DNA of 64,000 nucleotides from Escherichia coli (GCF_016026235.1 NZ_CP065613.1); one strand, 5' to 3'; positions 16,878 to 63,102 are shown, numbered from the stretch's first letter. Program-made: numbers and translations. The notes: generated by a model not told the origin, from the sequence alone.

Positions 16878-17419
16878 TTGATTTTTACTCCAATACCCGA
16901 AACCACCAGCCATACTTCATTTGCCGCAGCGGCCAACTGCTGATTTACCCGCCCGGCAATATCACGAAAATGTCGTGCCAGACGACTCTCCGGCACAATC
17001 CCCATTCCCACTTCGTTAGTCACTAATACAACCTTTGCGGGGCAACGTTGGCAGGCAGCAATCAACGACTGAATCTCAGCATTAATCGCCTGTTCCATCG
17101 CCTGATAATCCCATTCATCAGGGTCTTTATCGCCGCCATAATCAAACAACAGATTAGTCACCATTGTGGTAACGCATTCAAGCAACACAACCTCATTCGG
17201 GTTAATGTCTGCATGAATTAATTCATCAAGATGTTGCCAGCGCTCCACTGTGCGCCAGTGCTCCGGGCGGCCTTGCCGATGATGTTCTATCCGTGCAGCC
17301 ATCTCATCATCAAGGATTTGCGAGGTAGCGATATACAGAACCTGTGAAGAGTCCCCAATAAGCGCCTCTGCGTGGCGACTCTTCCCGCTCCGTGCGCCCC
17401 CCGTCACCAAAATCATCAT
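16874..17419 (-). CDS. cobU: Adenosylcobinamide kinase / adenosylcobinamide-phosphate guanylyltransferase
   Basis: 181-aa product with P-loop GGARSGKS; recognised as CobU. Confidence 0.9.
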
Positions 17420-18692
17420 ACCGACTCCTGATTCAAATGTATGATGGTATTCATTGAACAGAACAATGGATCCCCCACCGTTGCTGACCGCAAAACATTT
17501 ACGCGATTAATACTGCGCGTAATATAATTAAAAATCCAGCATTCTCAATCCATTACGAAATAAGATGGCATTACGGAATAGCCAGACTTTCTCGTGTTAA
17601 CGTCCGACAAAATGCGTCATTGACAGCGGTTTCTGTGGATTGACACATTTCATTCAGATAATGAATTAATGCTACTGCCGGAACAACCAGCAAACGGGCA
17701 TTGTGTTCTGAAATCCAGGCTATTGATTCAACGTCAGCGACAGATCTGCGCTGTAAAAGAACTTGTAAAACAACGTAATAGAATTATCCGGAATGGTGGC
17801 GACTATGCACTAGAACACCACAATTTCGCTCTCTCGGTAAGGCACTGTCACAGCATTCAACAGAATGTGACTTGCCAGATTTATTAGCGCCACCAGATGT
17901 TTAACCGGGTAACCACGACCCAGTCGGGGATATATTCCATCTTCTCGCTGACATCATCAAGAATAAAAAGGTTTATCACACTCAGAGCAACGTTCTTCAG
18001 CAGGCGGGATAATTCTTCAACATTTAAAAGATGTGTTATTAAAGGCATACAAACTGGACGTATTGTATTTTCTTTTGGTGGTTGACCTAAGGTAGCAGTT
18101 TATCCTGATGCGCTGAGATTTCTGTAATATCTACGTCAACATTCTCCTCGAATAGAAAATGCAGCCCCGGCAAGTGATTCACATTTTTTAACAAAACGTT
18201 GTTAGCGTGCCATTTTCAGAAGCTCTCCAAGAAAGCGAATTCTTTTCTCAAATTCTGCATTCTCAGACACAGCTTTCTACTCCATGGCAATGGCCCAAAT
18301 ACGAAGTTGCTCAGGATCATTAGTGGTGCTGAGAAGTTAAATAACCATGCGGAGTACCACTCGTCATCACGTATTTATATATCATGAAGCTATTGTTGTG
18401 TTTTGTACATCAGTAGATGTATTCTGATATACTCCTTTTGCTAGACATAACCTTTCACCTGCTTGCAAAGCTTCTGTGTTCTGACATTGCCAAATTGTTG
18501 CAATTCTGTATCCAGCCTTCTTTCAGTCATAGCTTCGGGCCGCGATAAGACTCACTGATCTGACCCTGATTCCTCTTGCAGACTTTATAGACCAATTAAA
18601 ATGCAGTTTCTGCAGGTCAACGTCTGACCATCATTGTCATCACTCTGGCCATTAGAGTAACCTTCTGCATTCATCCTTTTGTAAAAAGTTTA

Positions 18693-19335
18693 TAGACTGG
18701 CCCCCTGAATCTCCAGACAACCAATATCACTTAAATAAGTGATAGTCCTGATACAAGTTTTTAGAGTAGTCATTAGTGAACAGATAATTGTTAACTTAGA
18801 ACCAGTAAAATGCAAACGACGCACCACGCTGGGAAAATCGCTGCTATTCAGCAGAGTTTTGTACCGAGAATTGTGGCCAGCCACTTATTGCTCTCGCGTA
18901 AGCAGGTATCCCTATCGTTTACCAGTCCAGCACATCTTGTGGTCAGGCAGAAGAAGAGCAAACTGTTACTGGACTCACTGCATGCATGGTGGAGAAAAAT
19001 GCCACGCTATCCAAAAATCCAGACTGGGAGAATGGTTCAGCTGTGTACTGAATCAGTGGGGCGCACTCTGTTATTACAGTGTTGACGGTCAGGCGGAGGC
19101 AGACATAATGCCGCGGAAAAAGCCCTTTGTGCCATCTGTCTCGGAAATAAAAACTTTATGTTCTTCGGCGGCGAGCGCAGTGCACTGTTGTATGGGCTTA
19201 TCGGCACTTGCCTTCTGAACGACATTGATCCGGAAGCGTATCTGCGCCATATCCTGAGCGTACTGCCGGAATAACCTTCCAACCGTATTGATGAACTCCT
19301 GCCATGGAACGTAGCACTCACCAATAAATAAGCGT
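18693..19335 (+). mobile_element. Composite IS relic: IS2-type left end with decayed orfA, followed by the C-terminal fragment of an IS66-family TnpC
   Basis: 18693-18747 is identical to the first ~55 bp of the IS2 left end at 27064, then diverges. At 19150-19330 the translation KNFMFFGGERSALLYGLIGTCLLNDIDPEAYLRHILSVLPE ... DELLPWNVALTNK matches the conserved IS66 TnpC C-terminus. No intact ORF. Confidence 0.5.
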
Positions 19336-23999: not shown

Positions 24000-25034
24000 A
24001 TGAAAGATTATCTACAAACTGTGACGGGCCCCGTCGCCCGTGAAGATATGGGGCTAACACTTCCTCATGAACATCTGTTCAACGATCTTTCCTCTGTTGT
24101 GGATGCTCCTTGCTATCCTTTTTCACAACGGCTTGTTGATAAAAAAGTCACGGCAGAAATCCAGTGGGCATTAAAACACGATCCTTATTGCTGCGCTGAT
24201 AATATGGACCGCAAACCTATTGAAGATGTGATCTTCGAAATTAATAACTTTATCTCGCTCGGTGGTCGCACCATTGTTGATGCCACAGGGTCTGAGTCTA
24301 TCGGACGAGATGCGCAGGCATTACGAGAAGTCGCATTAAAAACAGGTCTGAATATTGTTGCTTCCTCCGGTCCCTACCTGGAAAAATTTGAAAGCCAGAG
24401 AATTCATAAAACGGTTGATGAACTGGCGACAACGATCGATAAAGAATTGAATCAAGGGATTGGCGATACGGATATTCGTGCCGGAATGATCGGTGAAATA
24501 GGTGTTTCACCGACATTTACCGAAGCCGAGCATAACAGCTTGCGGGCTGCCTCGCTGGCACAGATTAACAATCCTCATGTGGCGATGAATATTCACATGC
24601 CGGGCTGGCTTCGTCGCGGTGATGAAGTACTCGACATTGTGTTAGGTGAAATGGGCGTCTCGCCAAATAAAGTCTCTCTCGCACACTCGGATCCGTCAGG
24701 AAAAGACGTGGCGTATCAGCGGAAAATGCTTGATAGAGGTGTCTGGCTGGAATTCGACATGATTGGCCTAGACATTACCTTCCCGAAAGAGGGAATAGCG
24801 CCAGGGGTGCAGGAGACTGCCGATGCCGTCGCTCATCTCATTGAGTTGGGATACGCCGATCAGCTTGTTCTCAGCCACGATGTCTTCCTTAAACAAATGT
24901 GGGCTAAAAATGGCGGTAATGGCTGGGGATTTGTTCCAGATGTTTTTCTGGCCTATCTGGCGGAGCGCGGCGTCGATAAAACGATCCTCAAAAAACTCTG
25001 TATCGATAATCCCGGACGATTATTGACCGCATAA
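24000..25034 (+). CDS. Phosphotriesterase-family (PTE/Php-like) metal-dependent hydrolase
   Basis: 344-aa product with the N-terminal metal-binding motif TLPHEHL and overall amidohydrolase/PTE layout. Confidence 0.75.
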   Translation: MKDYLQTVTGPVAREDMGLTLPHEHLFNDLSSVVDAPCYPFSQRLVDKKVTAEIQWALKHDPYCCADNMDRKPIEDVIFEINNFISLGGRTIVDATGSESIGRDAQALREVALKTGLNIVASSGPYLEKFESQRIHKTVDELATTIDKELNQGIGDTDIRAGMIGEIGVSPTFTEAEHNSLRAASLAQINNPHVAMNIHMPGWLRRGDEVLDIVLGEMGVSPNKVSLAHSDPSGKDVAYQRKMLDRGVWLEFDMIGLDITFPKEGIAPGVQETADAVAHLIELGYADQLVLSHDVFLKQMWAKNGGNGWGFVPDVFLAYLAERGVDKTILKKLCIDNPGRLLTA

Positions 25035-25043
25035 AACCATTAT

Positions 25044-25066
25044 CCCCCGGCACATTGCGCCGGGGG
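25044..25066. terminator. Bidirectional terminator between the PTE-like gene and the ggt remnant
   Basis: Perfect hairpin cccccggcacattgcgccggggg. Confidence 0.45.
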
Positions 25067-25073
25067 ATGTCAA

Positions 25074-25410
25074 TTAATACCCCGCCGTTAAATCATCCAC
25101 CAAGCGCGAGTCGGATGCGCCGTACAACTCACCATCCGACCCAACCATAATGCTTTGCGTGCTGCCCAACACCTCATTCAGCGCCACTTTCTGACCTTTT
25201 GCTTCCAGCAGCTTGAGCGTATCCGGACTAACCCCTTTTCAACACGCAGCTCGTCCGGCAACCACTGATGGTGGAAACGAGGCGTATTGGTCGCTTCGGC
25301 AACATTCATTCCACAATTGATGCTGTTCACCACCATTTGCAGCACGGTAGTGATGATCCAGCTACCGGTAACAAAGTGAGTACATAAAGGCCATACTGTC
25401 ACGAACAGTG
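25074..25410 (-). pseudogene. 3' remnant of a gamma-glutamyltranspeptidase paralogue, truncated by the ISL3 element
   Basis: Minus-strand translation gives the GGT C-terminus ...IITTVLQMVVNSINCGMNVAEATNTPRFHHQWLPDELRVEKG and ...ALNEVLGSTQSIMVGSDGELYGASDSRLVDDLTAGY with one frameshift. It ends at the ISL3 inverted repeat at 25411. Confidence 0.55.
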
Positions 25411-25685
25411 CAAAAGTGGCTCTTCCGCAACCTAGGTGAAGATTTTCATGCCAGTGGACTCATTACCCTCCGCCTAAGTAGTTCAAGTCCGGCTCGACCA
25501 TACATCTGGCGTATCAGCACCTTCAGGCGATTTACATGACCTTCGACAACACCAGTACTCCAGCGACTGCTGATTGCCTCACGTATAGCCGCAGCATCAG
25601 CTTCCATCCCCGCAGCTACGCACCGAAGTTCTGCTGAGCCGCTTTCGTGGACCCGAGTGAACCAGCTGCTTAGCTGTGATTTATT

Positions 25686-27063
25686 TTAGGTTTTCAGAAT
25701 ACGGTAGAACTCGAGTACCAGTTGCTGCGCTATTTTCAACTCCGGTTCTTTTTCACACATCAGACTAATAAATCGGAAAGCATAATTTTCTTCACCCCTG
25801 ATTATTCTCCGGGGCATCAACCAGCGGCTTACCCGGGACACTGAAGGAAGTCTTGCGGCAGTAGTAACCGGTGGGATCCAGCCTTTACGCCATTTGGCAA
25901 CAGCATCCCTGACGATGGTTTCACTGCCTGTAACCCCCCTGGCCACCATTTCCCGCCATATCCGGCCGGAGTTATAATTACCACATTCTCGTTGCTCTTT
26001 TAACCACTCCCTCCATGGGTCCAGAAGCCCTCGCTTTGGAGGCCTAGTTGACATTTCAGGGAATGTTCCTGAACCCACCCAGCGACTGACTGTCACTCGC
26101 GACAGGCCTGTAATACGGGATATTTCCCTGAAACTACATCCCTTGTTATGCAGGGCCATAACCTCTGTCCAACGCTGATGCCGTTTTTTGCGGGTGTGCT
26201 GTTTAAGGCGTTCCAGACGACGGAGCGATGCTACAGGCACAGATATTTCTGGCTCAGGTGATTTCTTCAGTGATAACTCTCTGACAACAAGACGTATCAG
26301 AGGCATATGTCTGTACATCATTCGTTCAGGCTCATCACCAATATTTTTTAGCAGGTGCCATCGATAGGCCACCTGTCTGGCCTGAGGTGCACCTTCACGT
26401 GCTGCTGTCGCATAGACTCCACTGCGATCACGCGATACAACCTGTATTTCCGGACCTTTTCTGAACCAGGTCGCCAGCGTACGCTGATCACGGCCGGGAA
26501 GCAGGACCAGGGGGCGGTGAGTATCAAGATTGAATATTAACGTACCGTAACGGTGGCCCCAATGCCACGCCCACTCATCAATACCGACATGAGGCGCGCC
26601 TGACTGTTTCGTCTCCGGGGTATTGATAAGCCTGCGAAGAAGAGTATCAGCACTGCAACGGAGACCCGCTGCCGTTGCAGCCCGTTTTCCAGCCTCACCT
26701 CCAGCTATTAATCCCAGTTGACGTTGTTAATTTTGTAACGCCTGTGAAGACTGCTGGTGTGAACTGGCGAAGGGAGCAAGCGACTCGGCAAAAATTTTAC
26801 GTGACAAGCCGGGTTACGGCAGTACCAGTGGCGGACGGAAAATACAAGCCATAGCGTCTGCCCTGAGCAGGGTAGATGCTGTATCCGGCGCCGACGACAA
26901 CTATGAACAGAGTCGCTACGCTTAAAGCATTCAGGACATTGTGCTGTTTTGCGTTTTCCGTGGAGATGGAGGGTTATACCGTCAGAGCTAATAATTTGTC
27001 GACTGCATCGCCATCCGCAAGGTAACTTTAGAAGTGTCTTAAGAGAGTGCATTGCGTTGCCCA
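25686..27063 (-). pseudogene. ISL3-family transposase, frameshifted; its start region is separated from the body by the IS2 insertion
   Basis: N-terminal zf-ISL3-like region (...CPECFKRSDSVHSCRRRRIQHLP...RHWYCRNPAC), a central part in another frame, and a C-terminal part (…YRWHLLKNIGDE…). The first two codons (ATG GGC) lie beyond the IS2, at 28395-28400 on the minus strand. Confidence 0.6.
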
Positions 27064-33415: not shown

Positions 33416-33985
33416 TCAGCCACGACTGCAGCCAAAGTTGCGCTCACCGGTGCAGTGAGCTTTGGTATGCTCCTTCGCCAGATAGTCAGCACGTTCCAGC
33501 ACTTGCTGAAAGCCGGTGTCATCATTACGCGCCAGCCACACCGCCGGCCAGGCCGGAAAATGCACCAGCGTGGCATGGCACCCGACATCCACTCCCAGGG
33601 CACTGCACCACGCCTGTTTAATCATCCCGGCCAGTGATCCCGGAGCGCGGTAATCACCGGCACGACACCAGGTATCCCGGTTGACCAGCAGCATCAGGTG
33701 ATAGTGTTTTTTACCTTTGCACTCCCCAAACTCCCGGGCCCAGACGTAATGCAGGGTTGTGGGATGCACGCGTTTACCTTCCCGATGCTTACGTTTCTGG
33801 TAAGCGTCGATTCGGGCTTTCAGGGCATTGATGAAGCGGGATATCACAGCTGCGTCCGTTGCTGCCGGTACATCCGGGAGACGCAGGTCAACCCGCAATG
33901 CCGTCAGGCGGGGATGAACATTCAGTGCGTGCCGCACCGTCTCACGAATACGTTGCTGCCAGAAGGGGTTGTATTTGTAGGTCAT
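33416..33985 (-). CDS. YagK/YfjJ-family (inovirus Gp2-like) prophage protein
   Basis: Product starting MTYKYNPFWQQRIRETV... resembles the CP4-type YagK/YfjJ family; assigned from memory only. Confidence 0.55.
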   Translation of the reverse strand: MTYKYNPFWQQRIRETVRHALNVHPRLTALRVDLRLPDVPAATDAAVISRFINALKARIDAYQKRKHREGKRVHPTTLHYVWAREFGECKGKKHYHLMLLVNRDTWCRAGDYRAPGSLAGMIKQAWCSALGVDVGCHATLVHFPAWPAVWLARNDDTGFQQVLERADYLAKEHTKAHCTGERNFGCSRG

Positions 33986-34183
33986 GGTTAAATCTCCGTA
34001 TGGTTCATACGGAATAGCCACGTCGTAAAAAATGCGCAGAGTCCCTGAAGTGACCTCCGGCAGGACACTGTCTCAGGCACTCTGTGATAACCCGAACGGT
34101 CGTCTCCGGACTGACGGTTGAATTTTCAGCGTTGTTTTTTAATGTAAAAAACCGGTTACGGGTAAGGCTGTGAGGAGGGAGTT

Positions 34184-34384
34184 ATGGTGATACGCAAAAA
34201 GAAGTGCAGGGACTGTGGAAACGCGATTACTCATAATACAGTGTGTTGCCCGTATTGTGGTTCTGTCGACCCCTTCGGCTACTACCGGAATACAGACCGT
34301 ATCGTTACCATACTGCTGGCGCTGATTATTGTGGTCCTGCTGACTACTGTCAGCGTCAGTGTGTGTATACTGTGTAGCTGGTGA
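34184..34384 (+). CDS. Small zinc-ribbon protein with a C-terminal transmembrane helix
   Basis: 66-aa ORF preceded by a strong Shine-Dalgarno (gaggagggag). CRDCGN...CCPYCGS zinc-ribbon followed by a hydrophobic segment IVTILLALIIVVLLTTVSVSVCIL. Confidence 0.4.
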   Translation: MVIRKKKCRDCGNAITHNTVCCPYCGSVDPFGYYRNTDRIVTILLALIIVVLLTTVSVSVCILCSW

Positions 34385-35614
34385 GATAACGGTTCATGTA
34401 TCCCCTGAGCTGACAGTGTACCGTGTATATTAAGCGTAACCGACAGGTTCTCCTTCATACCATATTAAATTTTTCCAGGTATTGCCGCTGCCTTATTTCG
34501 TCCCATACAGGAAAACTCATCTGGGTTTCTGACAAATACGCGAAACTCACAGCCCCTCAATATCAACCACACGTTGTAAGCCGGTAATACCTGAAAATCA
34601 GCCTATTACCGCCCACGCCTCCGGCACCATTCCCTTTTGATTTCGAATTCTTTGTTGTCGCTATACCGCTTAATGTTCCCGGTCCTCCGGTGCAGATAAC
34701 ACCGGAGTCATCGTAGCGCTGCTTCAATATTCAGGTGACATATTTCCAGACAGAAGCCGGCGCGCGATCGTAAAGTTTGTTCATTGTCAGTTCTGCCAGC
34801 CGGTTGTCAACGGCAGAGTTAAAGGCTTCCAGCTCCGCAAGGGTAAGTTTATAACGCGTGTGGGAATTCACTTTTCCCGCGTCTCCTGACGTATTACGGG
34901 CTGCCACTTACCTGGTGTCCCGCAATACAGCCTTAGTGTTCCGTTATCGGGGATCCGGACGCACCGCAACAACCGGGGAAGTATTTCTGGTTTAGAGCAG
35001 TGTCAAGAGGGATTTCTCAGCCCCTCACTCACCGGCTCAGTCTCAAGGCAGGAGAATTAATACGCTCAGTTCATGTCTTATACAGGAATGGGCACAGGGG
35101 GAGCTAGCGTGTCACTGCTGATTTTACGCATCAGCGTTCATGTATCTGCACTCTGATACATGAACGATTCACAGCGCTCTGTTACCGGAGAGATTTACTC
35201 TCTTAGCTTACTCTGGCAAATCCTTTACGTTACTCTCTGATGACTTCTTATATTTATAATACCAATCAGACAGCCTTATCCCATCGGTGATATCAGTCTC
35301 CTCCTCGCCAGGAACGGGCTGACTCACTGTAACCACCTCCGAAAACAACTCTGCAATTATCAGAACGCCTGCTTCTCTCCCTGTCCTCACGAAAACTATC
35401 CCCTCTTTATCGCGCGTGCGTGCGGAAGCATCTTTTCGCAACAACCACCCAGTATACCGGTACGGCTCAGCCACCGCAACCTCCCCGTTTATCTCCTGGC
35501 GGTCACATTCCCGATTATTTTTTACGTTTCTCCCCGGTTGTTATGCCGGTGAAGGTGGCGCGCTGTTTTCATGACCACACCGGCTGGTTTAACAACATCC
35601 GGAGGAACATTCTC

Positions 35615-35821
35615 ATGGCTACCCCAGTTTCACTGATGGATGACCAGATGGTCGACATGGCATTTATCACTCAACTGACCGGCCTGACAGATAAGTGGTT
35701 TTACAGGCTCATCAGGGATGGGGCCTTTCCGGCTCCCATCAAGCTGGGCCGCAGCTCCCGCTGGCTGAAAAGTGAAGTGGAAGCCTGGCTGCAGGCGCGT
35801 ATTGCACAGCCCCGCCCGTAA
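35615..35821 (+). CDS. alpA: AlpA-family phage/prophage transcriptional regulator
   Basis: 68-aa product with the AlpA pattern ...ITQLTGLTDKWFYRLIRDGAFPAPIKLGRSSRWLKSEVEAWL... Confidence 0.7.
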   Translation: MATPVSLMDDQMVDMAFITQLTGLTDKWFYRLIRDGAFPAPIKLGRSSRWLKSEVEAWLQARIAQPRP

Positions 35822-35909
35822 TTTCTGACCGTTATCCGTTCACCCGCAGCAGACGTAATCCCCGGCCTGCCGGCGGCATTCTGCTGCCTGTTATATCCCC
35901 GTGAGGAAT

Positions 35910-36518
35910 ATGAAAATGAAACAACAGTATCAGACCCGCTACGAATGGCTCCACGAAAGCTACCAGAAATGGCTGACCGGCTTCACCCGGCACGCCGTAT
36001 CCTGGGGCGTGTGTCATCCGAATATCTACTACTTCCATAATCTGACGCCCGGTTGGGTGTCATTCAATGGTGAAAAACCGGAGATTGCCATCGTACCCCA
36101 GAGCCTGCACCGGCTGATTTATGGCCCTGACAAACGGGCCACGCCGCCCCTGGATGATGATCTGATCGTGAATTTATGCACCAGTGAACATCTGCTGGTT
36201 CATCATCCGATGCTGGAAGGCATTCTCCTGTCTGAATGTGAACGTCTGAGGCAGCGTTCTCTGGCAAATAAACTGATCAGCCTCTTCCGTCAGTTTGGTG
36301 GCACGGAGTTGCGCCTCAAACTGGTCTGGCTTTGCTGGCTTGATTTAATGACCGGAAACAGCCTTGAAGACTGGAAAGAGAACCTGAAACGGAAATCAGA
36401 AAAAGAGCTGGAGGAATGGATCATCAACCGTCAGAGGCAGAGCGCAGCACTGACGGATCTGATGGATCAGTACGTGCTCCTGGCATACCGCACAACGGTT
36501 GACGATAACCGCAACTGA
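35910..36518 (+). CDS. Hypothetical protein (island-encoded)
   Basis: About 200-aa ORF directly downstream of alpA with a Shine-Dalgarno (gagga) upstream of tandem ATGs; no recognisable domain. Confidence 0.5.
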   Translation: MKMKQQYQTRYEWLHESYQKWLTGFTRHAVSWGVCHPNIYYFHNLTPGWVSFNGEKPEIAIVPQSLHRLIYGPDKRATPPLDDDLIVNLCTSEHLLVHHPMLEGILLSECERLRQRSLANKLISLFRQFGGTELRLKLVWLCWLDLMTGNSLEDWKENLKRKSEKELEEWIINRQRQSAALTDLMDQYVLLAYRTTVDDNRN

Positions 36519-37718
36519 TGCCGGTTGCTTCCGGAAGGTGTGACAAAATACGGAAATGATGATGCTCCCGGCCCCGCATGCTCACCTGCAGAGCGTGTTC
36601 GTCGTCATCATACTGAGCCATGACGGGCGTCTTAAGGGCATCCTGTCATTGCTGAGCAGGCAACACCACCAGAGGAGCCACGGACAGGGATGTTCTTTAC
36701 AGCCCGATGCACGCCAGGTTCTCAGCAGACTGAATGTGCAGGTGCGGTTATTCACCAGAAATGGCATGCTGCGGTACATACCCATCCTGGTGACAATATG
36801 TACGTGGCGACAGCGATCCCGGCACTGTGGAAGAGACTCACTCAGCCTGCAGGATATTCTTTCCGGCATCCGGGAATGTCCGCCTGAATGCAAACAGGAT
36901 GATATTTGAATCCGTAATACTGTTCTTTCATCATAAATAATTTATGCAGATACAGTTAACCGTCACAGTAGCAGGTTTGTTTTCCCGGGAAATAATATCC
37001 GTCAGACTGATGCCGGAACATATCTGAAACACGTTATGATGTTTTGTTATCAGAAATGTTGTATATTCTTATCCGTGACGGCAGTTTAATGCCCTCTGGT
37101 ATCACCTGATAATGCATATCCTGCGATGATTCGTTATATTTACGGGACACGTCTCTTTTCATTGTGCTCCTTTTCAGACTTCATTTTCCATAAGTGTTCC
37201 CCGGCATAAAGGAGGTACCTTTCTGGCGTTTATAACTCTCTTTATCGGTGACGCCGGTAATACAGGGAATACCACACCGACAAACGAGGTATTAACGGAC
37301 GATATTTCAGTGTCCATAATTTTGCTGTCCGGTTAAATAACGTCAGTCTGCTGCCCTCTGACTGTAATCATCAAAGCCGGAATGCATACCGGGTTACAAC
37401 GTAAAAAAAGTGATGCTGGCCCCCGGTGCAGCTGGCGGGCGAAACATGTTTACCTTTCAATACCCCCTGTCTGCAGTCTCCACTCTTCCATCCTCTTAAG
37501 CTACGTCGGCCACATGAGTGCACTTCCATGATAACAGGTATTCCTGTCAGCATAACGAAGCCGGTTACCTTCCCTTCCTCCTGCATTTCCTATCAGAATG
37601 ACTGTACAGCGCGCAGATTGCCTTTTTATTGACCACCTTAATATACCATTATAAACTTCTTTTTATCATGTTATTATCACCTTATTATGTTTAATTTTTA
37701 AGCAGCCAGAGAAAGAGG

Positions 37719-38636
37719 ATGGTTCAGAAAATTTTGTCGGATAAGGTTATGAATGAAAGAACAAATGCGTATTACTCTTATTATCTTGGAGGGCGTAATA
37801 TCTCCGTACTGCCCCTTAATGTTTATGATCCCCCGGAACGTTTTATCGCTTACATAAAAAAAAACAGAGAAAATCTGAACATCACACTTTCAGATTTTGA
37901 ACTTGAACAAATAATTTCTGGTATGCGTCTGAAGGCCCTGGCCTTCCTGGTCCCCCTGGAAAAAATATCCTGGATCGCAGGCAGTGAACGCGCATGCTTA
38001 TTTTCCTGGTATCTGTTGATGCAGTTTATCCAGAATAACAGGGCAAAAATAAGCGCAGACTTGCTTCAAAAGAATAAACTGTATCTTAAAGAAGAGTATC
38101 TGGAAGGGAATGCCTTCCCGTCGGACTCATCGACACAGTTCAGACAAATACTCAGAGTTCTCGATATTCTTTCTGATAAGAATTTGCGGGATGAGTGGAT
38201 AATCCAGACCAAAGACAGATGGATACGGGCATTTAAATCAAAGAGTCCTTTCAGTTACCTCCTCCCGGAGAACGAACATGAATGCATATGGACATGGAAT
38301 TATTTGAAGGGAAAAAATATTGCACTGGAAAAACTGGCCAGTTTTCCTGATTCTGCTGATATTTACCACGCAATTCACCTTTCATTTGACATATGGGTTA
38401 CCTGTACACTCACCTCACCTGACGATATAAAAAATTTCAGAAACAGTTTCAATAAGGCCAAGGCGCAGCGCAAGTACAAAAAAATGCAGGAAGATAAAGT
38501 CAATGTACAGTTTTTTCTTGACGCAGAAACCAGGGCGCAGCTCAAAGAATTATCGAGGGTCAGAAGACTCAGTACCGGCGAAATGCTGCATGACCTGATT
38601 GTTGAAGAGTATAAAAGGTACCGACATTCCAGATAA
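37719..38636 (+). CDS. Hypothetical protein with a C-terminal ribbon-helix-helix-like motif
   Basis: 305-aa ORF, visibly AT-rich. C-terminus VNVQFFLDAETRAQLKELSRVRRLSTGEMLHDLIVEEY resembles an RHH (CopG/Arc-type) DNA-binding module. Confidence 0.5.
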   Translation: MVQKILSDKVMNERTNAYYSYYLGGRNISVLPLNVYDPPERFIAYIKKNRENLNITLSDFELEQIISGMRLKALAFLVPLEKISWIAGSERACLFSWYLLMQFIQNNRAKISADLLQKNKLYLKEEYLEGNAFPSDSSTQFRQILRVLDILSDKNLRDEWIIQTKDRWIRAFKSKSPFSYLLPENEHECIWTWNYLKGKNIALEKLASFPDSADIYHAIHLSFDIWVTCTLTSPDDIKNFRNSFNKAKAQRKYKKMQEDKVNVQFFLDAETRAQLKELSRVRRLSTGEMLHDLIVEEYKRYRHSR

Positions 38637-38905
38637 TTTCAGACATATATTATCTCCGTGAGTCCCCCGCCACCTTTCCGGTGTGCGGGGTTTTTGTCTT
38701 TTTTCACCGGGAATACATGTATGAATCCGTCTGATGCCATTGAGGCAATTGAAAAACCGCTCTCCTCCCTGCCTTACTCACTTTCCCGTCACATCCTGGA
38801 ACATCTGCGCAAACTCACCAGTCACGAACCCGTGATTGGCATTATGGGTAAAAGCGGGGCCGGTAAATCCTCACTCTGTAATGCACTGTTTCAGGGGGAG
38901 GTCAC

Positions 38906-40199
38906 CTGAGGGATCCCCAGAAAATTTAGTAAACCATTATCATATTGGTATACCGTTGCTGTAGAACTTTCAGCCCTGCGTCAAGTGACAGTGTGTTTAG
39001 TATGAGTGGAGAATGTCGAATCACATTCTCCGCCAGTTTTAATAACGAGATGACTCGCCTGTGCTTCACTGTATTTGCCTGATATTTATGATGTATCCCT
39101 TTGTTTTCCAGGCTGAAACCGCTTAACCACATAATGATACTGGCTAATGTTGCGATCAGACTCAATACCGTGACCCGCCCGGATGAATGACTGGCACCAA
39201 ACCGTAATCCAAATCCCCAGCGAGGATTTTTTTCATCCCTGAAATTTTGCTCAATTTGCATTCTACGGCTGTATAATTTCATTACCTGTTTTGGCGAGAA
39301 CTCAGTACTGTTTGTGAAAATAAACCATGGTGATTTCCCGGCAGTACGAGCTTTAGCCGTCACCGATGGTCTGGTTGCTCTTTCCTTCGAGCGTTTAAAT
39401 CAACGACCTTTAGGCTTACTTTTATAAAGATAAAAATGCCCTTCATGTTGTGCATTTTTATCTCGACCCAGCAGGCCTTCACCTAAATAAATTGCTGTCG
39501 TTGATGCTTTTGTGCCTGAGTCCGACACCTTTTCCCAGCCATTACCAACATTGTAATAATGATTGCCCAGTACCCGGCAAATATAGGTCCAGCCACGGGA
39601 GCGGAGCTGTTGGAACCATCGCCCCTGAAAACCGGCATCTGTAATAACAATGACATCAGTCCCGGGGGAAAAGCACTCAGCAAGCGATTCCAGAAAACGC
39701 TCATGTACATCTGCATTCGCTGTCTGTGATGATGGAACGACACAACTCATCAACGGTAAAGAACGCCCGTCACATGCCAGGCTTGCCCGCAAAAGCTGAA
39801 AACGAGAGGCATGATAAGCACTCCAGTCAATGAGTATCACAACACGAGACATTCCCCGCGTAATCTTTTGGGTAATTCGCTGAAAAATGGTGGAAACCTC
39901 ATTTTGCAAATGTCGATTCCCCAACAGTCGATCCACCCGCTTTATTTTGTTTTTAACTGATGCCGTACCGGTTAAATGACGCCCGATACTGGTAAGTGTG
40001 AGGGAAGCGCCATTTATTACAGCATTAGTTGCGTCAATCAGTGATTTTTGACGGTAAAGATGCAAAGGGGCCAGTATGTTGTTAAGGAAATTTTGGCATA
40101 ATGAACGTGCAGGCATAGTGGTGATCTCCTTGAAATTGTTAGCACAATCAATTAGATCACATCTCACTATGCCTGTCTTGTTTTCTGGGGATTCCTCAG
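38906..40199 (-). mobile_element. IS10-like IS4-family insertion sequence inside yeeP
   Basis: Terminal inverted repeats CTGAGGGATCCCCAGAAAA (38906-38924) and CTGAGGAATCCCCAGAAAA (reverse complement of 40181-40199). Flanking direct repeat GGGAGGTCAC at 38896-38905 and 40200-40209. Confidence 0.7.
38926..40116 (-). pseudogene. IS4-family (IS10-like) DDE transposase, in two frames
   Basis: Segments resemble the IS10 transposase (NKIKRVDRLLGNRHL; VIVITDAGFQGRWF; YSRRMQIEQNFRDEKNPRWGFGLRF) but are split between ORFs 39400-40116 and 38926-39363. Confidence 0.7.
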
Positions 40200-41009
40200 G
40201 GGAGGTCACCCCGGTCAGTGATGTTCACGCCGGCACCCGGGAAGTGCGGCGCTTCCGTCTGAGTGGCCACGGTCACAGCATGATTATCACTGACCTGCCC
40301 GGGGTGGGCGAGAGCCGGGACAGGGATGCAGAGTATGAAGCCCTGTACCGTGACATTCTGCCTGAACTTGACCTGGTACTGTGGCTGATTAAAGCCGATG
40401 ACCGTGCCCTGTCTGTGGATGAGTATTTCTGGCGACACATCCTGCACCGGGGACATCAGCAGGTGCTGTTTGTGGTGACGCAGGCCGACAAAACGGAGCC
40501 CTGCCATGAATGGGATATGGCCGGCATTCAGCCTTCTCCCGCACAGGCACAGAACATTCGTGAGAAAACAGATGCGGTATTCCGGCTGTTCCGGCCCGTA
40601 CATCCGGTTGTGGCCGTATCGGCCTGCACCGGCTGGGAACTGGATACGCTGGTCAGTGCGCTCATGACAGCGCTTCCCGACCATGCCGCCAGTCCCCTGA
40701 TGACCCGCCTGCAGGACGAGCTGCGCACGGAATCTGTCCGGTCTCAGGCCCGTGAACAGTTTACCGGTGCGGTGGACCGGATATTTGACACGGCGGAGAG
40801 CGTCTGTATTGCCTCTGTTGCACGCACGGTTCTGCGTGCCGTCCGTGACTCGGTGGTCTCTGTTGCCCGCGCTGTATGGAACTGGATTTTCTTCTGAACA
40901 GTCTGCCAGGGGAAATGCCTGATTACATTGCGTTAACCAACTGAAAACATGATACACCCCCCTCATATCCACCTCTTTCTCTTGCGTGACTGCCTTGCTG
41001 TTAATAGAA

Positions 41010-49861: not shown

Positions 49862-50239
49862 ATGAAAACATTACCCGACACGCATGTACGGGAGGTATCG
49901 TGCTGCCCGTCTCTCGTCACCATCTGGCAGACACTGCTCACCCGACTGCTGGACCAGCACTACGGCCTTACGCTGAATGACACACCGTTCGCTGATGAAC
50001 GTGTGATTGAACAGCATATTGAGGCAGGCATTTCACTGTGTGACGCGGTGAACTTTCTCGTTGTAAAATACGCGCTGGTACGTACCGACCAGTCGGGATT
50101 CAGCGCCTGTACCCACTCTCAGTTAATAAACAGCATCGATATCCTCCGAGCTCGCCGGGCAACAGGCCTGATGACCCGCGACAATTACAGAACGGTAAAT
50201 AACATTACCCTGGGGAAGCATCCGGAGGCGAAACGATGA
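49862..50239 (+). CDS. cbtA: Type IV toxin CbtA (YeeV), cytoskeleton-targeting
   Basis: 125-aa product MKTLPDTHVREVSCCPSLVTIWQTLLTRLLDQHYGLTLNDTPF... Confidence 0.85.
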   Translation: MKTLPDTHVREVSCCPSLVTIWQTLLTRLLDQHYGLTLNDTPFADERVIEQHIEAGISLCDAVNFLVVKYALVRTDQSGFSACTHSQLINSIDILRARRATGLMTRDNYRTVNNITLGKHPEAKR

Positions 50240-50439
50240 AACTGGCCCTGACGCTGGAAGCCGACAGCGTTAACGTGCAGGCGCTGAACATGGGGCGCAT
50301 TGTCGTTGACGTCGATGGTGTTAATCTCGCTGAACTGATTAACAAGGTCGCTGAAAACGGTGATTCACTCCGCGTGGTGGATGAACGTGACTCTACCGAA
50401 ACACCGGCAACTTATGCCAGCCCTCACCAGTTGCTGTAA
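50236..50439 (+). CDS. yeeW: Small CP4-type protein YeeW
   Basis: 67-aa ORF overlapping the cbtA stop by 4 nt (ATGA). Confidence 0.7.
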   Translation: MKLALTLEADSVNVQALNMGRIVVDVDGVNLAELINKVAENGDSLRVVDERDSTETPATYASPHQLL

Positions 50440-50713
50440 GACAATGCAGTGATACAGGGTATAGTGCCATTAACCACAGAAACAGCACTGTTGTCCTGTA
50501 TTAAGCAGGCAAGAGAAGATGTCCTTACCCTGCGCCATCTGCAGCTTCTGCACCAGAACCAGTGAATCTCACTCAACAGGCTTCATTTCCCCTGACGCCA
50601 GCCTGAATACAGCTGGCGTTTTCATTTATAAACAGAAAGGAAAACCGATAATAATGGAATGGACGCCCCTACCATGAAGCAACGGTAGGATATTACTGAT
50701 AAACCTTCCAGTG

Positions 50714-51752
50714 GAGGTGCGTTATGGCCGTTTTAACGATTAGCATTGACCTGACAAAAAATGAATTCCAAATCCACGGTCTGGGTAGGAACAGAAAAAT
50801 CTAAGCTCAGAAAACGGATTAAACGTTCCCTGATGCCCGTATTCTTCGCGAATATGTCTTCCTGTCGGATTGGGATGGAGGTCTGCGCCGGAGCGCGTCA
50901 TTAGTGAGAATGCTGTCTACTTAGGGGCATAATGTCAGACTAATGCCCGCGATTTGTAAAGCCATATGTGAAAACAAACAAGAATGATATGGCTGCTGCC
51001 GAGGCCATCTGTGAAGCCGTTACCCGACCTAATATGCGGTTTGTCAGCATCAAGACGCCTGAGCAGTAGTCATTACTGTCTTTTCATCGTGCCCAAACGG
51101 GATTTGTTAAATCAAGGACTGCGCAGATAAACCAGATCAGAGGATTACTGGCTGAATTTGGCATCGTTCTCCCGCCCGACATTGTAGCATTCAGTCGTCA
51201 TGTCCCTGCCCTGCTTGAAGACGCGGAAAACTGTTTAACAATGCCGTTCAGACAGCTGTCGTCCTATCTCTAATGAAAATGTGTAACAACTGAGCGTACA
51301 CATTGAAACCATAGAAGCCGTGAGCAACGAACACGTCGGGAACGACGAACTGTGCAGGAAAATTGCCACCATTTCGGGGATTGCTATTCTTACCACCACT
51401 GCAATTGTCAGCACCGGGTAGTATCGGCTTCAAAAACCGGCGTCAGCTTGCTGCATGGCTTGGACTGGTTCCCCGACAGTGCTTCAGCGTAGGTAAAAAC
51501 ACGCTGGGGTCTATCAGTAAACAGGACGATGTCTATATCAGAACGCTACTGTTCCATGGTGCGAAGACAGTGTCAAACGCCAGAAAGGGCAGACAGGTCC
51601 AGGAAAGTTGGCTGGGCAGACCAGTCTCGCGGCGGAATAAAAATGTTGCCACCGTAGCGCTGAACAACAAAAATGCCAGAGTGCTCTGGGTATTGCTAAC
51701 CAACGATAAAGAGATTTCACCAGAAGAAGTGATGGTAGCTGCATATATGTAA
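50714..51752 (+). pseudogene. Degraded IS110-family transposase (yoeD-like remnant)
   Basis: N-terminal stub MAVLTISIDLTKNEFQIHGLG and C-terminal segment ...RQLAAWLGLVPRQCFSVGKNTLGSISKQDDVYIRTLLFHGAKTV..., separated by frameshifts and stops. Confidence 0.6.
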
Positions 51753-60314: not shown

Positions 60315-61139
60315 TTACTCCAGCGGCATTACCAGCGGATCGGGATACTGGTATTCAAATCCCAGTTCATTACAAATCCGACTGCCATCAATAATCTTAC
60401 CTTTGCCGCTGTCCAGACTATTTCTGAACTGCGGAGGTTCCAGCCCCAGTAAACGGGCCATCTGCGGATAGAAAACATTACGCGCAGGGTGAGCTGGCGC
60501 ACATATATTATAGATGTGTCCGCCTTTAGGTGCCTGTAACAACAGAGTGATAGCGCCAATAACATCTTCTAAATGGACTAAATTAACACCATGTTCACCA
60601 TCAGGCGCGGTTTTTCCGGCAAAGAAGCGTCCGGGATGACGCCCCGGTCCGACCAGCCCCGCAAGACGCAGAATATCGACCGAAGTACCGGGTAAATTGT
60701 GCAACCAGTCTTCGAGTTCTTCTAATACTCGTCCACTGTTGGTCACCGGATTACGCGGGGTGGTTTCTTTCACCGTGCCTTGCGCGTCGCCATAGACAGA
60801 CGTTGAGCTGGTAAAAATAATTCGGGGAATACGATGGGCCAGCGCGCTATCCACTAACTCTTGTACCGCTTGTAAATAGAACTCATCGCCGGGGCCGCTA
60901 CGACGTGCCGGAAGCGTAATGACCAGCGCATCGGCATCCATCAGGGCATCCAGATCGTCAGAATCGCAAACTAACTCAGGCTCCATGCGAAGCAGATAGC
61001 TGTCAATGCCACTCATTCGGGCCGCTTCGACACCATCTTGTGTGGTTTTACTCCCGGTGACTTGCCAGCCTCGCGCTGAAAGTGACATCGCCAGCGGCAT
61101 GCCTAACCACCCTAACCCGACAATTGCGACCTTTTTCAT
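60315..61139 (-). CDS. yeeZ: NAD(P)-binding epimerase/dehydratase-family protein
   Basis: Rossmann motif VAIVGLGWLG at the N-terminus. Confidence 0.85.
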   Translation of the reverse strand: MKKVAIVGLGWLGMPLAMSLSARGWQVTGSKTTQDGVEAARMSGIDSYLLRMEPELVCDSDDLDALMDADALVITLPARRSGPGDEFYLQAVQELVDSALAHRIPRIIFTSSTSVYGDAQGTVKETTPRNPVTNSGRVLEELEDWLHNLPGTSVDILRLAGLVGPGRHPGRFFAGKTAPDGEHGVNLVHLEDVIGAITLLLQAPKGGHIYNICAPAHPARNVFYPQMARLLGLEPPQFRNSLDSGKGKIIDGSRICNELGFEYQYPDPLVMPLE

Positions 61140-61221
61140 CCGTTATCTCCTGATACACCTTAGATCTATAAGGCTACGCTAGCGTATCAAAACTGACAAT
61201 TCATTCTATGAATGAATCTGT

Positions 61222-61476
61222 TCAATAATGATAACGACATGCTGCAATGAGCAGTGAATCATCAGTAACCGCGTATACCAGACGGTGCTCCTCTGTAATG
61301 CGTCGGGACCAGAAACCTGACAAATTATGTTTCAGGGGTTCTGGTTTCCCCTTACCTTCAAATGGTGTTCTGCGGGTATCTTTGATAAGTTCATTGATCT
61401 TTTTAACAATTCGCTTATCTGTTTCCTGCCAGTACAGATAATCATCCCATGATTCCTCAGACCAGATTAGTTTCAC
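61222..61476 (-). CDS. yoeB: Type II toxin YoeB (ribosome-dependent mRNA interferase)
   Basis: 84-aa product [50 protein letters not shown]... Confidence 0.9.
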
Positions 61477-61724
61477 TCAATAATGTCCTTTTCCGTTCCT
61501 TTGCCTGATTTCAGGCTATCGATTGAGTCCATCAATCTCCGGGCGTTAGCGGGGGAACGCAGTAGATAAGCCGTCTCTTCCAGCGAGTTGTATTCTTCGA
61601 GTGACATCAGAACACAAGCCTCTCCATTCTGACGAGTAATGAGGATCGGGGCATGATCTTCAACGGCTTTCATCATTGTTGCCGACAAATTCTGACGCGC
61701 TTCGCTGTAGCTAATTGTACGCAT
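61473..61724 (-). CDS. yefM: Type II antitoxin YefM
   Basis: 83-aa product [45 protein letters not shown]...; its stop overlaps the yoeB start (ATGA). Confidence 0.9.
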
Positions 61725-61737
61725 GTAAATCTCCTCT

Positions 61738-61765
61738 TTTGTACAGTTCATTGTACAATGATGGG
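61738..61765 (-). promoter_or_regulatory. yefM-yoeB operator (paired TGTACA palindromes)
   Basis: ttgtacagttcattgtacaatg immediately upstream of yefM contains two TGTACA cores (61742-61747 and 61754-61759). Confidence 0.5.
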
Positions 61766-62006
61766 TGTTAATTAACTATTTATTAATTAGTTTGTAGATC
61801 AAGACATTGTCAGCGAGACGAAAAATCAGACTTTGCTCTTTTTGGTGCTGTCAAGTTAGAGGACAGTCCTCTTAGCCCCCTCCTTTCCCCGCTCATTCAT
61901 TAAACAAATCCATCGCCATAAAATATATAAAAAAGCCCTTGCTTTCTAACGTGAAAGTGGTTTAGGTTAAAAGACATCAGTTGAATAAACATTCACAGAG
62001 ACTTTT

Positions 62007-62057
62007 ATGACACGCGTTCAATTTAAACACCACCATCATCACCATCATCCTGACTAG
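62007..62057 (+). CDS. hisL: his operon leader peptide
   Basis: ATG ACA CGC GTT CAA TTT AAA followed by seven consecutive His codons, CCT GAC TAG (MTRVQFKHHHHHHHPD). Confidence 0.9.
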   Translation: MTRVQFKHHHHHHHPD

Positions 62058-62119
62058 TCTTTCAGGCGATGTGTGCTGGAAGACATTCAGATCTTCCAGT
62101 GGTGCATGAACGCATGAGA

Positions 62120-62154
62120 AAGCCCCCGGAAGATCACCTTCCGGGGGCTTTTTT
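62120..62154 (+). terminator. his attenuator terminator
   Basis: agcccccggaagatcaccttccgggggct followed by tttttt, between hisL and hisG. Confidence 0.8.
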
Positions 62155-62202
62155 ATTGCGCGGTTGATAACGGTTCAGACAGGTTTAAAGAGGAATAACA
62201 AA

Positions 62203-63102
62203 ATGACAGACAACACTCGTTTACGCATAGCTATGCAGAAATCCGGCCGTTTAAGTGATGACTCACGCGAATTGCTGGCGCGCTGTGGCATTAAAATTAA
62301 TCTTCACACCCAGCGCCTGATCGCGATGGCAGAAAACATGCCGATTGATATTCTGCGCGTGCGTGACGACGACATTCCCGGTCTGGTAATGGACGGCGTG
62401 GTAGACCTTGGAATTATCGGCGAAAACGTGCTGGAAGAAGAACTGCTTAACCGCCGCGCCCAGGGTGAAGATCCGCGCTACTTTACCTTGCGTCGTCTGG
62501 ATTTCGGCGGCTGCCGCCTTTCGCTGGCAACGCCGGTTGATGAAGCCTGGGACGGCCCGCTCTCCTTAAATGGTAAACGTATCGCCACCTCTTATCCTCA
62601 CCTGCTCAAGCGTTATCTCGACCAGAAAGGCATCTCTTTTAAATCCTGCTTACTGAACGGTTCTGTTGAAGTCGCCCCGCGTGCCGGACTGGCGGATGCG
62701 ATTTGCGATCTGGTTTCCACCGGTGCCACGCTGGAAGCTAACGGCCTGCGAGAAGTCGAAGTTATCTACCGCTCGAAAGCCTGCCTGATCCAGCGCGATG
62801 GCGAAATGGAAGAATCCAAACAGCAACTGATCGACAAACTGCTGACCCGTATTCAGGGTGTGATCCAGGCACGCGAATCAAAATACATCATGATGCACGC
62901 ACCGACCGAACGTCTGGATGAAGTCATCGCCCTGCTGCCAGGTGCCGAACGCCCAACCATTCTGCCGCTGGCGGGAGACCAACAACGCGTAGCGATGCAC
63001 ATGGTCAGTAGCGAAACCCTGTTCTGGGAAACGATGGAAAAACTGAAAGCGCTGGGTGCCAGTTCAATCCTGGTCTTGCCGATTGAGAAGATGATGGAGT
63101 GA
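62203..63102 (+). CDS. hisG: ATP phosphoribosyltransferase
   Basis: 299-aa product from [20 protein letters not shown]... Confidence 0.9.

Follow-up and report, generated by a model that had tools for sequence, protein, structure and literature searches.

The question raised by positions 36519 to 37718 of this Escherichia coli DNA (NZ_CP065613.1) is what 1,200 nt that appear to encode no protein are doing between two genes of an integrative island. An earlier note on the sequence had suggested a decayed gene, a long regulatory leader or a non-coding RNA. All positions refer to the window, i.e. the whole stretch of DNA that was analysed, with a length of 64 kb (64,000 nt), and the 1,200 nt are called the gap below. 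The edges of the gap are exact: its upstream neighbour, a 200-aa gene, has the last base of its TGA at 36518, and its downstream neighbour, a 305-aa gene, has the first base of its ATG at 37719; the latter start codon is fixed by the N-terminal residues, which are conserved from M1 onwards across homologs. Based on gene order and annotated relatives, the window represents a CP4-type integrative island with the following order:

Beginning of the island order: zinc-ribbon genes
33416-34021, minus strand: YagK/YfjJ-Gp2-family gene
Next in the listed order, before the Hha-family gene: 66-aa ORF
34731-34907, minus strand: Hha-family gene
35615-35821, plus strand: intact alpA (Pfam Phage_AlpA, PF05930, E 4.9e-9)
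35916-36518, plus strand: 200-aa gene, directly upstream of the gap
37719-38636, plus strand: 305-aa gene, directly downstream of the gap
After the 305-aa gene: YeeP-type GTPase gene, split by an IS4-family element
After the GTPase gene: Ag43, placed from annotated relatives

The same backbone order is found in the Shigella SRL pathogenicity island and other CP4-like islands, the SRL island carrying Gp2/YfjJ-like, Hha, Vis/AlpA, hypothetical ORFs, YeeP-type GTPase and Ag43 in this order (PMC6980539). In the SRL annotation the slot is filled by four ORFs with 'no similarity', whereas the ORFs of the gap studied here are not conserved between lineages. Of 5,426 complete E. coli genomes, 1,285 contain the gap in its entire length, in every case on the chromosome; it is found, for instance, in ST131 strains and in Nissle 1917 with an identity of about 99%. 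PGAP leaves about 1.1 kb of it without annotation in other E. coli genomes; its calls are an antisense ORF of 65 aa that extends over the end of the 200-aa gene (36424-36621, minus strand) and, in some genomes, a further 65-aa ORF (36690-36887, plus strand).

The longest complete ORF of the gap has 117 aa (36556-36909, plus strand), lies in the GC-rich left third and is overlapped by a 103-aa ORF on the minus strand. These ORFs are chance-sized, because 12% of 500 dinucleotide shuffles of the sequence reach 117 aa (longest ORF 89.7 +/- 22.4 aa). Equal ORF poverty was found in just 5.9% of the 1.2-kb windows across the 64 kb, the longest open run in the gap being 121 codons versus a median of 246. 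The GC content is 0.54-0.55 at 36500-36899, 0.37-0.40 at 36900-37199 and 0.33-0.39 at 37500-37799. The earlier note was therefore right in seeing no convincing ORF and two AT-rich blocks here.

Comparison with related islands by tblastx, which the same note had proposed as a check, revealed no coding signal between lineages: all six frames match to the same degree, and the frame of the match changes repeatedly. Candidate ORFs, among them the two called by PGAP, carry stops or frameshifts in L005, the most divergent lineage, and those on the plus strand do so already in close lineages, where the minus-strand 65-aa ORF remains open. Pfam and NCBIfam searches with the eight longest stop-to-stop frames and both flanking proteins gave nothing usable. 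In place of a global tblastx, every frame with 38 aa or more was joined into one query (1,151 aa), which was compared by phmmer with 1.84 billion protein representatives. The 46 matches were short ORFs called on the same DNA, which are 66-100% identical and cover every frame of both strands, with the exception of one marginal 48% match (E 4.5e-4) and of chimeras, namely P0127, which runs into Ag43, P0132, which runs into a biotin-synthesis protein, and P0152, which contains adaptor-like sequence. No ORF of the gap combines a frame kept between lineages with relatives outside the locus.

Alignment to sister islands resolves the gap into segments of differing history, and by these alignments it is a mosaic. 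The region 35801-36841 goes with the upstream gene in lineages L004 (94%), L005 (80%) and L006 (93%, with a deletion of about 100 nt), and 37015-38700 goes with the downstream gene in L003 (86%), as determined by blastn. For the 173 nt between both blocks (36842-37014), local blastn found no match among the other island lineages. In L003 itself, about 34018-37014 have been cleanly deleted, and the junction shows a short microhomology, CGGAA(T/C)A. The order of the genes is unchanged in a further E. coli lineage, L034, whose gap of 1,442 nt (GC 0.43) consists of unrelated sequence; only about 21 nt past the stop codon of the upstream gene (to 36539) are common to both. The following segments were distinguished:

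36519-36841, no strand: module A extension, GC about 0.55, the 3' flank that goes with the 200-aa gene in most E. coli island lineages
36842-37014, no strand: AT-rich bridge, lineage-specific, with an imperfect 23-nt inverted repeat at 36842-36864 and 36988-37010
37015-37134, no strand: AT-rich segment, its left edge being the breakpoint common to the deletion variant L003, which aligns from 37015 rightwards
About 37135-37317, minus strand: alpA pseudogene, unannotated, start codon kept at 37317, frame broken by 4-nt and 13-nt deletions
37318-37640, no strand: distal intergenic part, collinear with the alpA/305-aa intergenic region of Salmonella, Serratia and other loci
37641-37700, plus strand: candidate promoter/operator block, about 60 nt under strong selection
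37701-37718, plus strand: purine-rich ribosome-binding region AGAGAAAGAGG, read from the sequence, directly before the ATG at 37719

For the module A extension, the JC divergence (0.11, 0.38 and 0.10 towards L004, L005 and L006, respectively) is equal to or slightly above the dS of the 200-aa gene (0.06, 0.37 and 0.09), and the segment therefore evolves neutrally. Indels of 1, 4, 5, 7 and 8 nt were found in it, and its candidate ORFs are broken in other lineages; in-frame indels are confined to the triplet microsatellites GATGATGATG and GTCGTCGTC.

The AT-rich bridge resembles miniature inverted-repeat elements in its size (about 170 nt), its AT-richness and its 23-nt imperfect inverted repeats, which are 83% complementary. 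Unlike such elements it is not dispersed: one to three copies per genome, of at least 97.8% identity, occur solely within this island lineage and in the same context, and the assignment to this class was rejected for this reason. For the adjoining segment 37015-37134, no homology was detected by profile, protein or DNA search, including plasmid and phage collections. When the larger region 36519-37216 was compared with the plasmid and phage collections, other copies of the same island were found and no phage match. An exact 11-nt direct repeat, ACTGATGCCGG, is present at 36514 and 37006, about 0.17 such pairs being expected by chance according to our own estimate; homology supporting it as a duplication or target-site signature was not found.

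The one gene relic detected in the gap is a copy of alpA. A DNA profile of the canonical islands matches 37217-37714 (E 3e-53, model positions 797-1318), a match which covers the entire ancestral intergenic region and runs into about 100 nt of the alpA 5' end (model 797-898). An alpA-only nhmmer profile matches 37224-37285 on the minus strand with 9.7 bits (E 2.6e-4), compared with a maximum of 5.9 bits in 200 shuffles, and at the homologous position of L003 it reaches 35.2 bits (E 2.7e-12) over model positions 2-204, i.e. almost the full gene. Translations of the relic retain the motif FV.M.F...TG..DK..Y..L.K, a helix-turn-helix signature; the L003 relic reads FVGMVFVPHITGFADKGTYIRLKGVVF where AlpA reads FVDMTFITSLTGLTDKWFYKLIKDGTF. 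An AlpA protein HMM of our own build gave 6.4 bits at 37208-37270 (minus strand), and Pfam was silent on the long frames. From the canonical-profile match, the alpA-only profile and the AlpA-like translations together, the segment at about 37135-37317 is identified at the sequence level as an alpA pseudogene absent from the annotation. It is a pseudogene rather than a gene, since the deletions and stops break every frame and its AlpA-like peptides are split between two frames. A 42-aa ORF with an AAGGAG ribosome-binding site (37034-37162, minus strand) was noted inside the relic; it is lost in L003.

Compared with the alpA (PF05930) of CP4-57-type islands, the relic aligns at the DNA level and retains the start codon and the helix-turn-helix motif; the gene is intact there, whereas here it is frameshifted and shortened by deletions. 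The placement of the relic matches that of the intact alpA of L021, L022 and L025, which is divergent from the 305-aa/GTPase pair and separated from it by a shared intergenic region. In contrast to canonical islands, a second, intact alpA (35615-35821) is located upstream in the opposite orientation, and the layout is rearranged in this respect; the second match of the canonical DNA profile in the window is the intact 200-aa gene, likewise inverted (E 2e-84). The idea of a decayed gene thus holds for about 183 of the 1,200 nt, while elsewhere in the gap no other gene relic was detected, either in the six-frame search of 1.84 billion proteins or by family profiles.

The part to the right of the relic can be traced further. 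The nearest relatives of the 305-aa protein outside this lineage are found in Salmonella (78% protein identity) and in Serratia and another locus (69%), where the layout is YagK/Gp2, 197-aa gene and alpA on the minus strand, followed by the 305-aa gene and the GTPase gene on the plus strand. The alpA/305-aa intergenic region has a length of about 410-420 nt in Salmonella, Serratia and other Enterobacterales loci. By its collinearity, 37318-37718 is the ancestral divergent control region between alpA and the 305-aa gene. Constraint over 37015-37640 was compared between two E. coli lineages and three other genera. Between genera, the identity of 37318-37640 is 0.4-0.65 and rises to 0.80 in a small island at 37401-37420 (ACGTAAAAAAAG). 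An alpA-proximal motif, ACCGGGTTACAACGTAAAAAAAG, is located at 37388-37412 and recurs inverted at 35518-35549, upstream of the intact alpA. A C-rich, G-poor tract with C/G up to 2.7 extends over about 37414-37686. Towards L003, the JC divergence of the 700 nt upstream of the 305-aa gene is 0.29, versus 0.05 at the synonymous sites of the gene, and identity rises from 71-86% to 92-100% at its start codon, which marks a recombination breakpoint.

Within this control region, conservation is concentrated in 37641-37700, where cross-genus identity is 0.80, 1.00 and 0.90, versus about 0.75 in the 305-aa coding sequence. The invariant part is a 23-nt core, GTTnnTATnnCCTTnTTnTGnTT (= GTTATTATCACCTTATTATGTTT), at 37670-37692. 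Relatives whose protein is about 50% identical (Enterobacter, Edwardsiella and a second E. coli type) were added to the comparison: the core was unchanged in eight lineages, which span Escherichia to Edwardsiella with protein identities as low as 49%, and the sequence around it became unalignable. In all 19 fetched loci carrying a gene of the 305-aa family, the core occurs once and ends 25-27 nt before the ATG; in the window it is also a single copy, with 0.05 expected. The conservation of the block thus exceeds the neutral level, and its distance from the gene is constant.

Three direct repeats of TTAT(C/G)(A/T), spaced by 11 nt, are located at 37663, 37674 and 37685. TRF reports them as period 11 with 2.7 copies, and no other tandem repeat or iteron hinting at a replication origin was found. 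The block contains the -10-like hexamers TAAACT (37652-37657), TATCAT (37664-37669) and TATTAT (37683-37688). The best promoter-like site, TTGACC-17-TAAACT at 37629-37657, has 9 of 12 matches, and its -35 hexamer is not conserved between genera. RNAalifold predicted no pairs in an eight-lineage alignment of the last 170 nt of the gap, and the block is read as a DNA-level element for this reason. Only these approximately 60 nt near the start codon look functional in the gap, and we infer that they form the core promoter and a protein-binding operator of the 305-aa/GTPase operon.

Natural variants bear on how much of the upstream DNA is required. In the BL21-derived strain C43(DE3), about 153-161 nt are left upstream of the 305-aa gene, and strain W21 has lost part of the conserved block as well, with just 64 nt remaining. 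IS1 is inserted at 36855-36862, in the bridge, in L031 and at 37292-37301, inside the alpA relic, in L030. The 305-aa gene is annotated as intact in all four. Of the long regulatory leader that had been proposed, the element of regulation stands, as the last 401 nt are an ancestral divergent control region; the length is not supported, since just about 60 nt are conserved and the gene is annotated as intact after deletions down to 64-161 nt.

Which protein would bind the repeats can be approached through the 305-aa protein itself. The GTPase-adjacent protein in islands carrying BREX and Dnd is distantly related to it and collinear with it (20% identity, E 3e-5). The AlphaFold model of the 305-aa protein, which is of good confidence (pLDDT 83, pTM 0.71), is all-helical, the C-terminus being modelled as a short element followed by two helices, in a strand-helix-helix-like arrangement. 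A Foldseek search with the model gave no significant match; the protein shows weak structural similarity to TraM and MatP and no match to a ribbon-helix-helix Pfam family. The ribbon-helix-helix label that the protein had received is plausible as a tentative assignment. Arc/Mnt, CopG, ParG and omega are ribbon-helix-helix repressors with autoregulated operators. Like such operators, the block is extremely conserved and has short direct repeats one helical turn (11 nt) apart, which would overlap the -10/start-site region directly upstream of a gene whose product ends in a strand-helix-helix-like arrangement. The classical repressors differ in being far smaller than the 305-aa protein and in their Pfam assignment.

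For the three helically phased repeats, which would lie across the -10 region and the transcription start, the most likely ligand is the 305-aa protein, which would attach by the putative ribbon-helix-helix domain at its C-terminus and thereby regulate its own gene. A host factor such as IHF may bind them instead, because in our reading of the sequence they resemble two tandem near-matches to the IHF consensus. Other subfamilies of the protein have direct-repeat arrays of their own at the same place, ACGCA in six copies in L012 and ATCACTAC in four copies in L034, which suggests cognate operators. A bolder proposal, which we regard as speculative and rather unlikely, is that the 23-nt core is the operator of an uncharacterised two-gene backbone module under autoregulation, consisting of the RHH/MatP-like 305-aa protein and the YeeP-type GTPase, that is conserved in a large Enterobacterales family of integrative islands with cargo for defence, e.g. 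BREX and Dnd, and in which each subfamily co-evolved its own repeat array. If true, the 305-aa/GTPase module would be a specificity-determining maintenance or switch element of Enterobacterales integrative islands.

Taken as a whole, the gap is probably a mostly non-functional mosaic spacer that arose by rearrangement and decay in a CP4-type island backbone and contains an alpA relic and an ancestral control region. In the ancestral state, alpA and the 305-aa gene would have diverged from a common intergenic region of about 410-420 nt. This E. coli lineage carries an intact alpA-200-aa pair upstream in the opposite orientation, and the original alpA has decayed to the relic, which still adjoins its original intergenic region (37318-37718) and has about 620 nt of neutral or lineage-specific DNA to its left. 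The untranslated C-rich tract at 37414-37686 could load Rho, so that transcripts reading through from alpA and the 200-aa gene would be terminated; H-NS/Hha probably bind the AT-rich blocks.

The origin of the left 620 nt (36519-37134) allows a variant which would extend the fossil reading: one or more cargo or backbone genes, e.g. the original 197-aa gene, may have decayed there beyond recognition. A length argument points this way, as the ancestral 197-aa gene, spacer, alpA and intergenic region add up to about 1,318 nt versus the 1,200 nt observed. The same is true of the composition of the module A extension, where the GC content is 0.55 and the period-3 signal reaches 3.9, compared with 6.3 and 3.4 in the flanking genes and 0.87 at 37015-37718; given this signal, 36519-36841 may have an ancient coding origin, decayed beyond recognition. 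The corresponding slot in sister lineages holds a decayed AAA-ATPase together with IS66 and IS3 fragments, and an intact version of it, sought in the longer slot of L004, was not found among what were again only IS66/IS3 fragments and decayed ATPase pieces. The 197-aa protein gave one weak tblastn match (36648-36905, minus strand, E 0.03), which was treated as noise.

Against a decayed 197-aa partner of alpA, an 80-member profile HMM of that family scored at most 0.3 bits anywhere in the gap, and the nhmmer profile of the canonical locus was silent to the left of about 37203. Self-tblastx and self-blastn of the gap against the intact copy in the window were negative, and the identification of 36519-37134 as this partner was rejected on the two profile results. 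For 36519-36841, no protein homolog was found in Pfam, NCBIfam, the 1.84 billion proteins or family profiles. A related-locus search of genome contigs with the 200-aa protein yielded no confirmed relative. A Rep/Gp2 remnant was also considered and discarded, since blastn and tblastx against L008-L016 were negative. A gene lost beyond recognition on the left seems possible, though we would not expect it.

The spacer reading leaves the AT-rich blocks as likely H-NS/Hha targets; a stronger form holds that the gap is mainly a nucleation platform for these proteins, silencing the 305-aa/GTPase/Ag43 side, with length and composition under selection and the sequence itself free to change. It draws on the two AT-rich blocks (GC 0.33-0.40), on the Hha-family gene of the island and on the recurrence of long unrelated gaps at this position, as in L034. 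Silencing of CP4-type elements by H-NS is documented for Shewanella (PMC8034616). The canonical relatives, however, manage with just about 410-420 nt, the natural deletions leave as little as 64-161 nt, and half of the gap has a GC of 0.55. Such a platform is accordingly improbable as the main role of the gap.

That the gap encodes an RNA of its own, be it an sRNA, a transcript running antisense from the promoter of the alpA relic or a long 5' leader with structure that controls the 305-aa/GTPase pair, is very improbable. It could be suspected from the long untranslated sequence with promoter-like sites on both strands, which are modestly enriched (6 versus 2.9 +/- 1.7 expected), from the partial conservation of ACGTAAAAAAAG near the relic alpA and from the minus strand of the bridge, which folds marginally better than shuffles (z -2.2, compared with -1.1 on the plus strand). 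The Rfam 15 covariance scan of 35000-39500 on both strands, however, returned no match at E<=1. In the sliding 120-nt folding scan, the mean z across the gap was -0.02 on the plus and -0.30 on the minus strand, no better than in the flanking genes, and no value below -2.2 occurred inside the gap. The conserved block has no consensus structure, 36519-36841 diverges neutrally, natural isolates tolerate the IS1 insertions and large deletions, and the sequence is wholly different in L034. The non-coding RNA of the earlier note is accordingly unsupported.

Hardly credible, finally, is the reading of the short ORFs 36424-36621 (minus strand, 65 aa), 36690-36887 (plus, 65 aa), 36556-36909 (plus, 117 aa) or 37034-37162 (minus, 42 aa) as real small-protein genes: two of them are called by PGAP in many genomes, the minus-strand 65-aa ORF stays open in close lineages and 36519-36841 has some three-base periodicity, but all are broken in L005 and the plus-strand ones in close lineages too, in-frame indels fall in the triplet microsatellites, amino-acid changes predominate in both frames, database relatives belong to the same locus only, the lengths are those of chance and the 42-aa ORF belongs to the alpA relic.

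The gap is thus an ordinary decaying intergenic region, and about 1.1 kb present in about a quarter of the complete E. coli genomes is fossil DNA. For annotation, an alpA pseudogene is to be added, and the hypothetical ORFs placed in the gap by the pipeline are unsupported and to be dropped. The relic shows the derivation of the E. coli CP4-type backbone from the layout present in other Enterobacterales. The 23-nt core at its fixed distance offers a precise and testable handle on the control of the unstudied 305-aa/GTPase pair beside Ag43.

Upstream of the gene for the 305-aa putative RHH-type protein, the window shared 71-86% identity with L003, a locus of the sister lineage, while within the gene the identity was 92-100%, with a sharp step at position 37715. 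The divergence between the two amounted to JC 0.29 upstream, versus dS 0.05 in the 305-aa gene. A step in identity to L003 as sharp as this points to a recombination breakpoint at the gene's 5' end.

An exact 11-nt direct repeat, ACTGATGCCGG, is located at positions 36514-36524 and 37006-37016 of the window. The first copy coincides with the stop codon that ends the 200-aa gene, and the second lies where the segment in common with L003 has its left edge. By our own estimate, the chance expectation for such an exact pair is approximately 0.17, and the repeat may represent microhomology used in rearrangement. Immediately 3' of the same stop codon, a perfect 12-bp stem-loop (CCACAGGGCTGG...CCAGCCCTGTGG) was observed at 3897-3940 of L005, the most divergent lineage among those compared; at this site just a short CTTCCGGAAG palindrome remains in the window lineage.

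A second ORF-poor region, 33700-35700, extends from the Gp2/YagK-family gene to alpA; the rearrangement behind the gap at 36519-37718 probably produced this region as well. Within it lie a zinc-ribbon-like ORF of 66 aa and one short gene, flagged partial by PGAP in relatives:
34731-34907, minus strand, Hha-family gene (Pfam HHA, E 1.4e-17)
Further ORF-poor stretches, taken as 1.2-kb windows in which no open stretch exceeded about 130 codons, lay elsewhere in the 64 kb at about 8900-10200, 17200-19100, 24700-26000, 49900-51700 and 60800-62500.

The motif CCGG..CCGGG..ACGTAAAAAA occurs at 35518-35549 and 37377-37408, at comparable upstream distances from the intact alpA (plus strand) and the alpA relic (minus strand), respectively. 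It is kept across genera and is probably an alpA promoter or regulatory site.

Distant subfamilies of the 305-aa protein were seen to have direct-repeat arrays immediately 5' of the start codon, in two related island loci:
L012 3200-3330, minus strand, ACGCA six times, spaced 11-13 nt
L034 5420-5551, ATCACTAC four times
Since each of these subfamilies carries its own array, the repeats suggest putative protein-specific operators.

The YeeP-type GTPase gene (38658-40897), the downstream partner of the 305-aa gene, is in two pieces separated by the insertion of an IS4-family (DDE_Tnp_1) element, the transposase of which is itself broken into two ORFs:
38658-38909, N-terminal GTPase piece, carrying the P-loop
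38926-39363 and 39400-40209, minus strand, IS4-family transposase
40076-40897, rest of the GTPase gene

The canonical islands (L008-L016), loci from Klebsiella, Yersinia and E. coli, have a module of alpA, a 199-aa gene and Rep, followed by defence cargo consisting of BREX brxA/B/C, of DndB together with PAPS reductase and an SMC-like ATPase, or of an SNF2 helicase. As this cargo comes after the module, the island backbone serves as a carrier of anti-phage systems.
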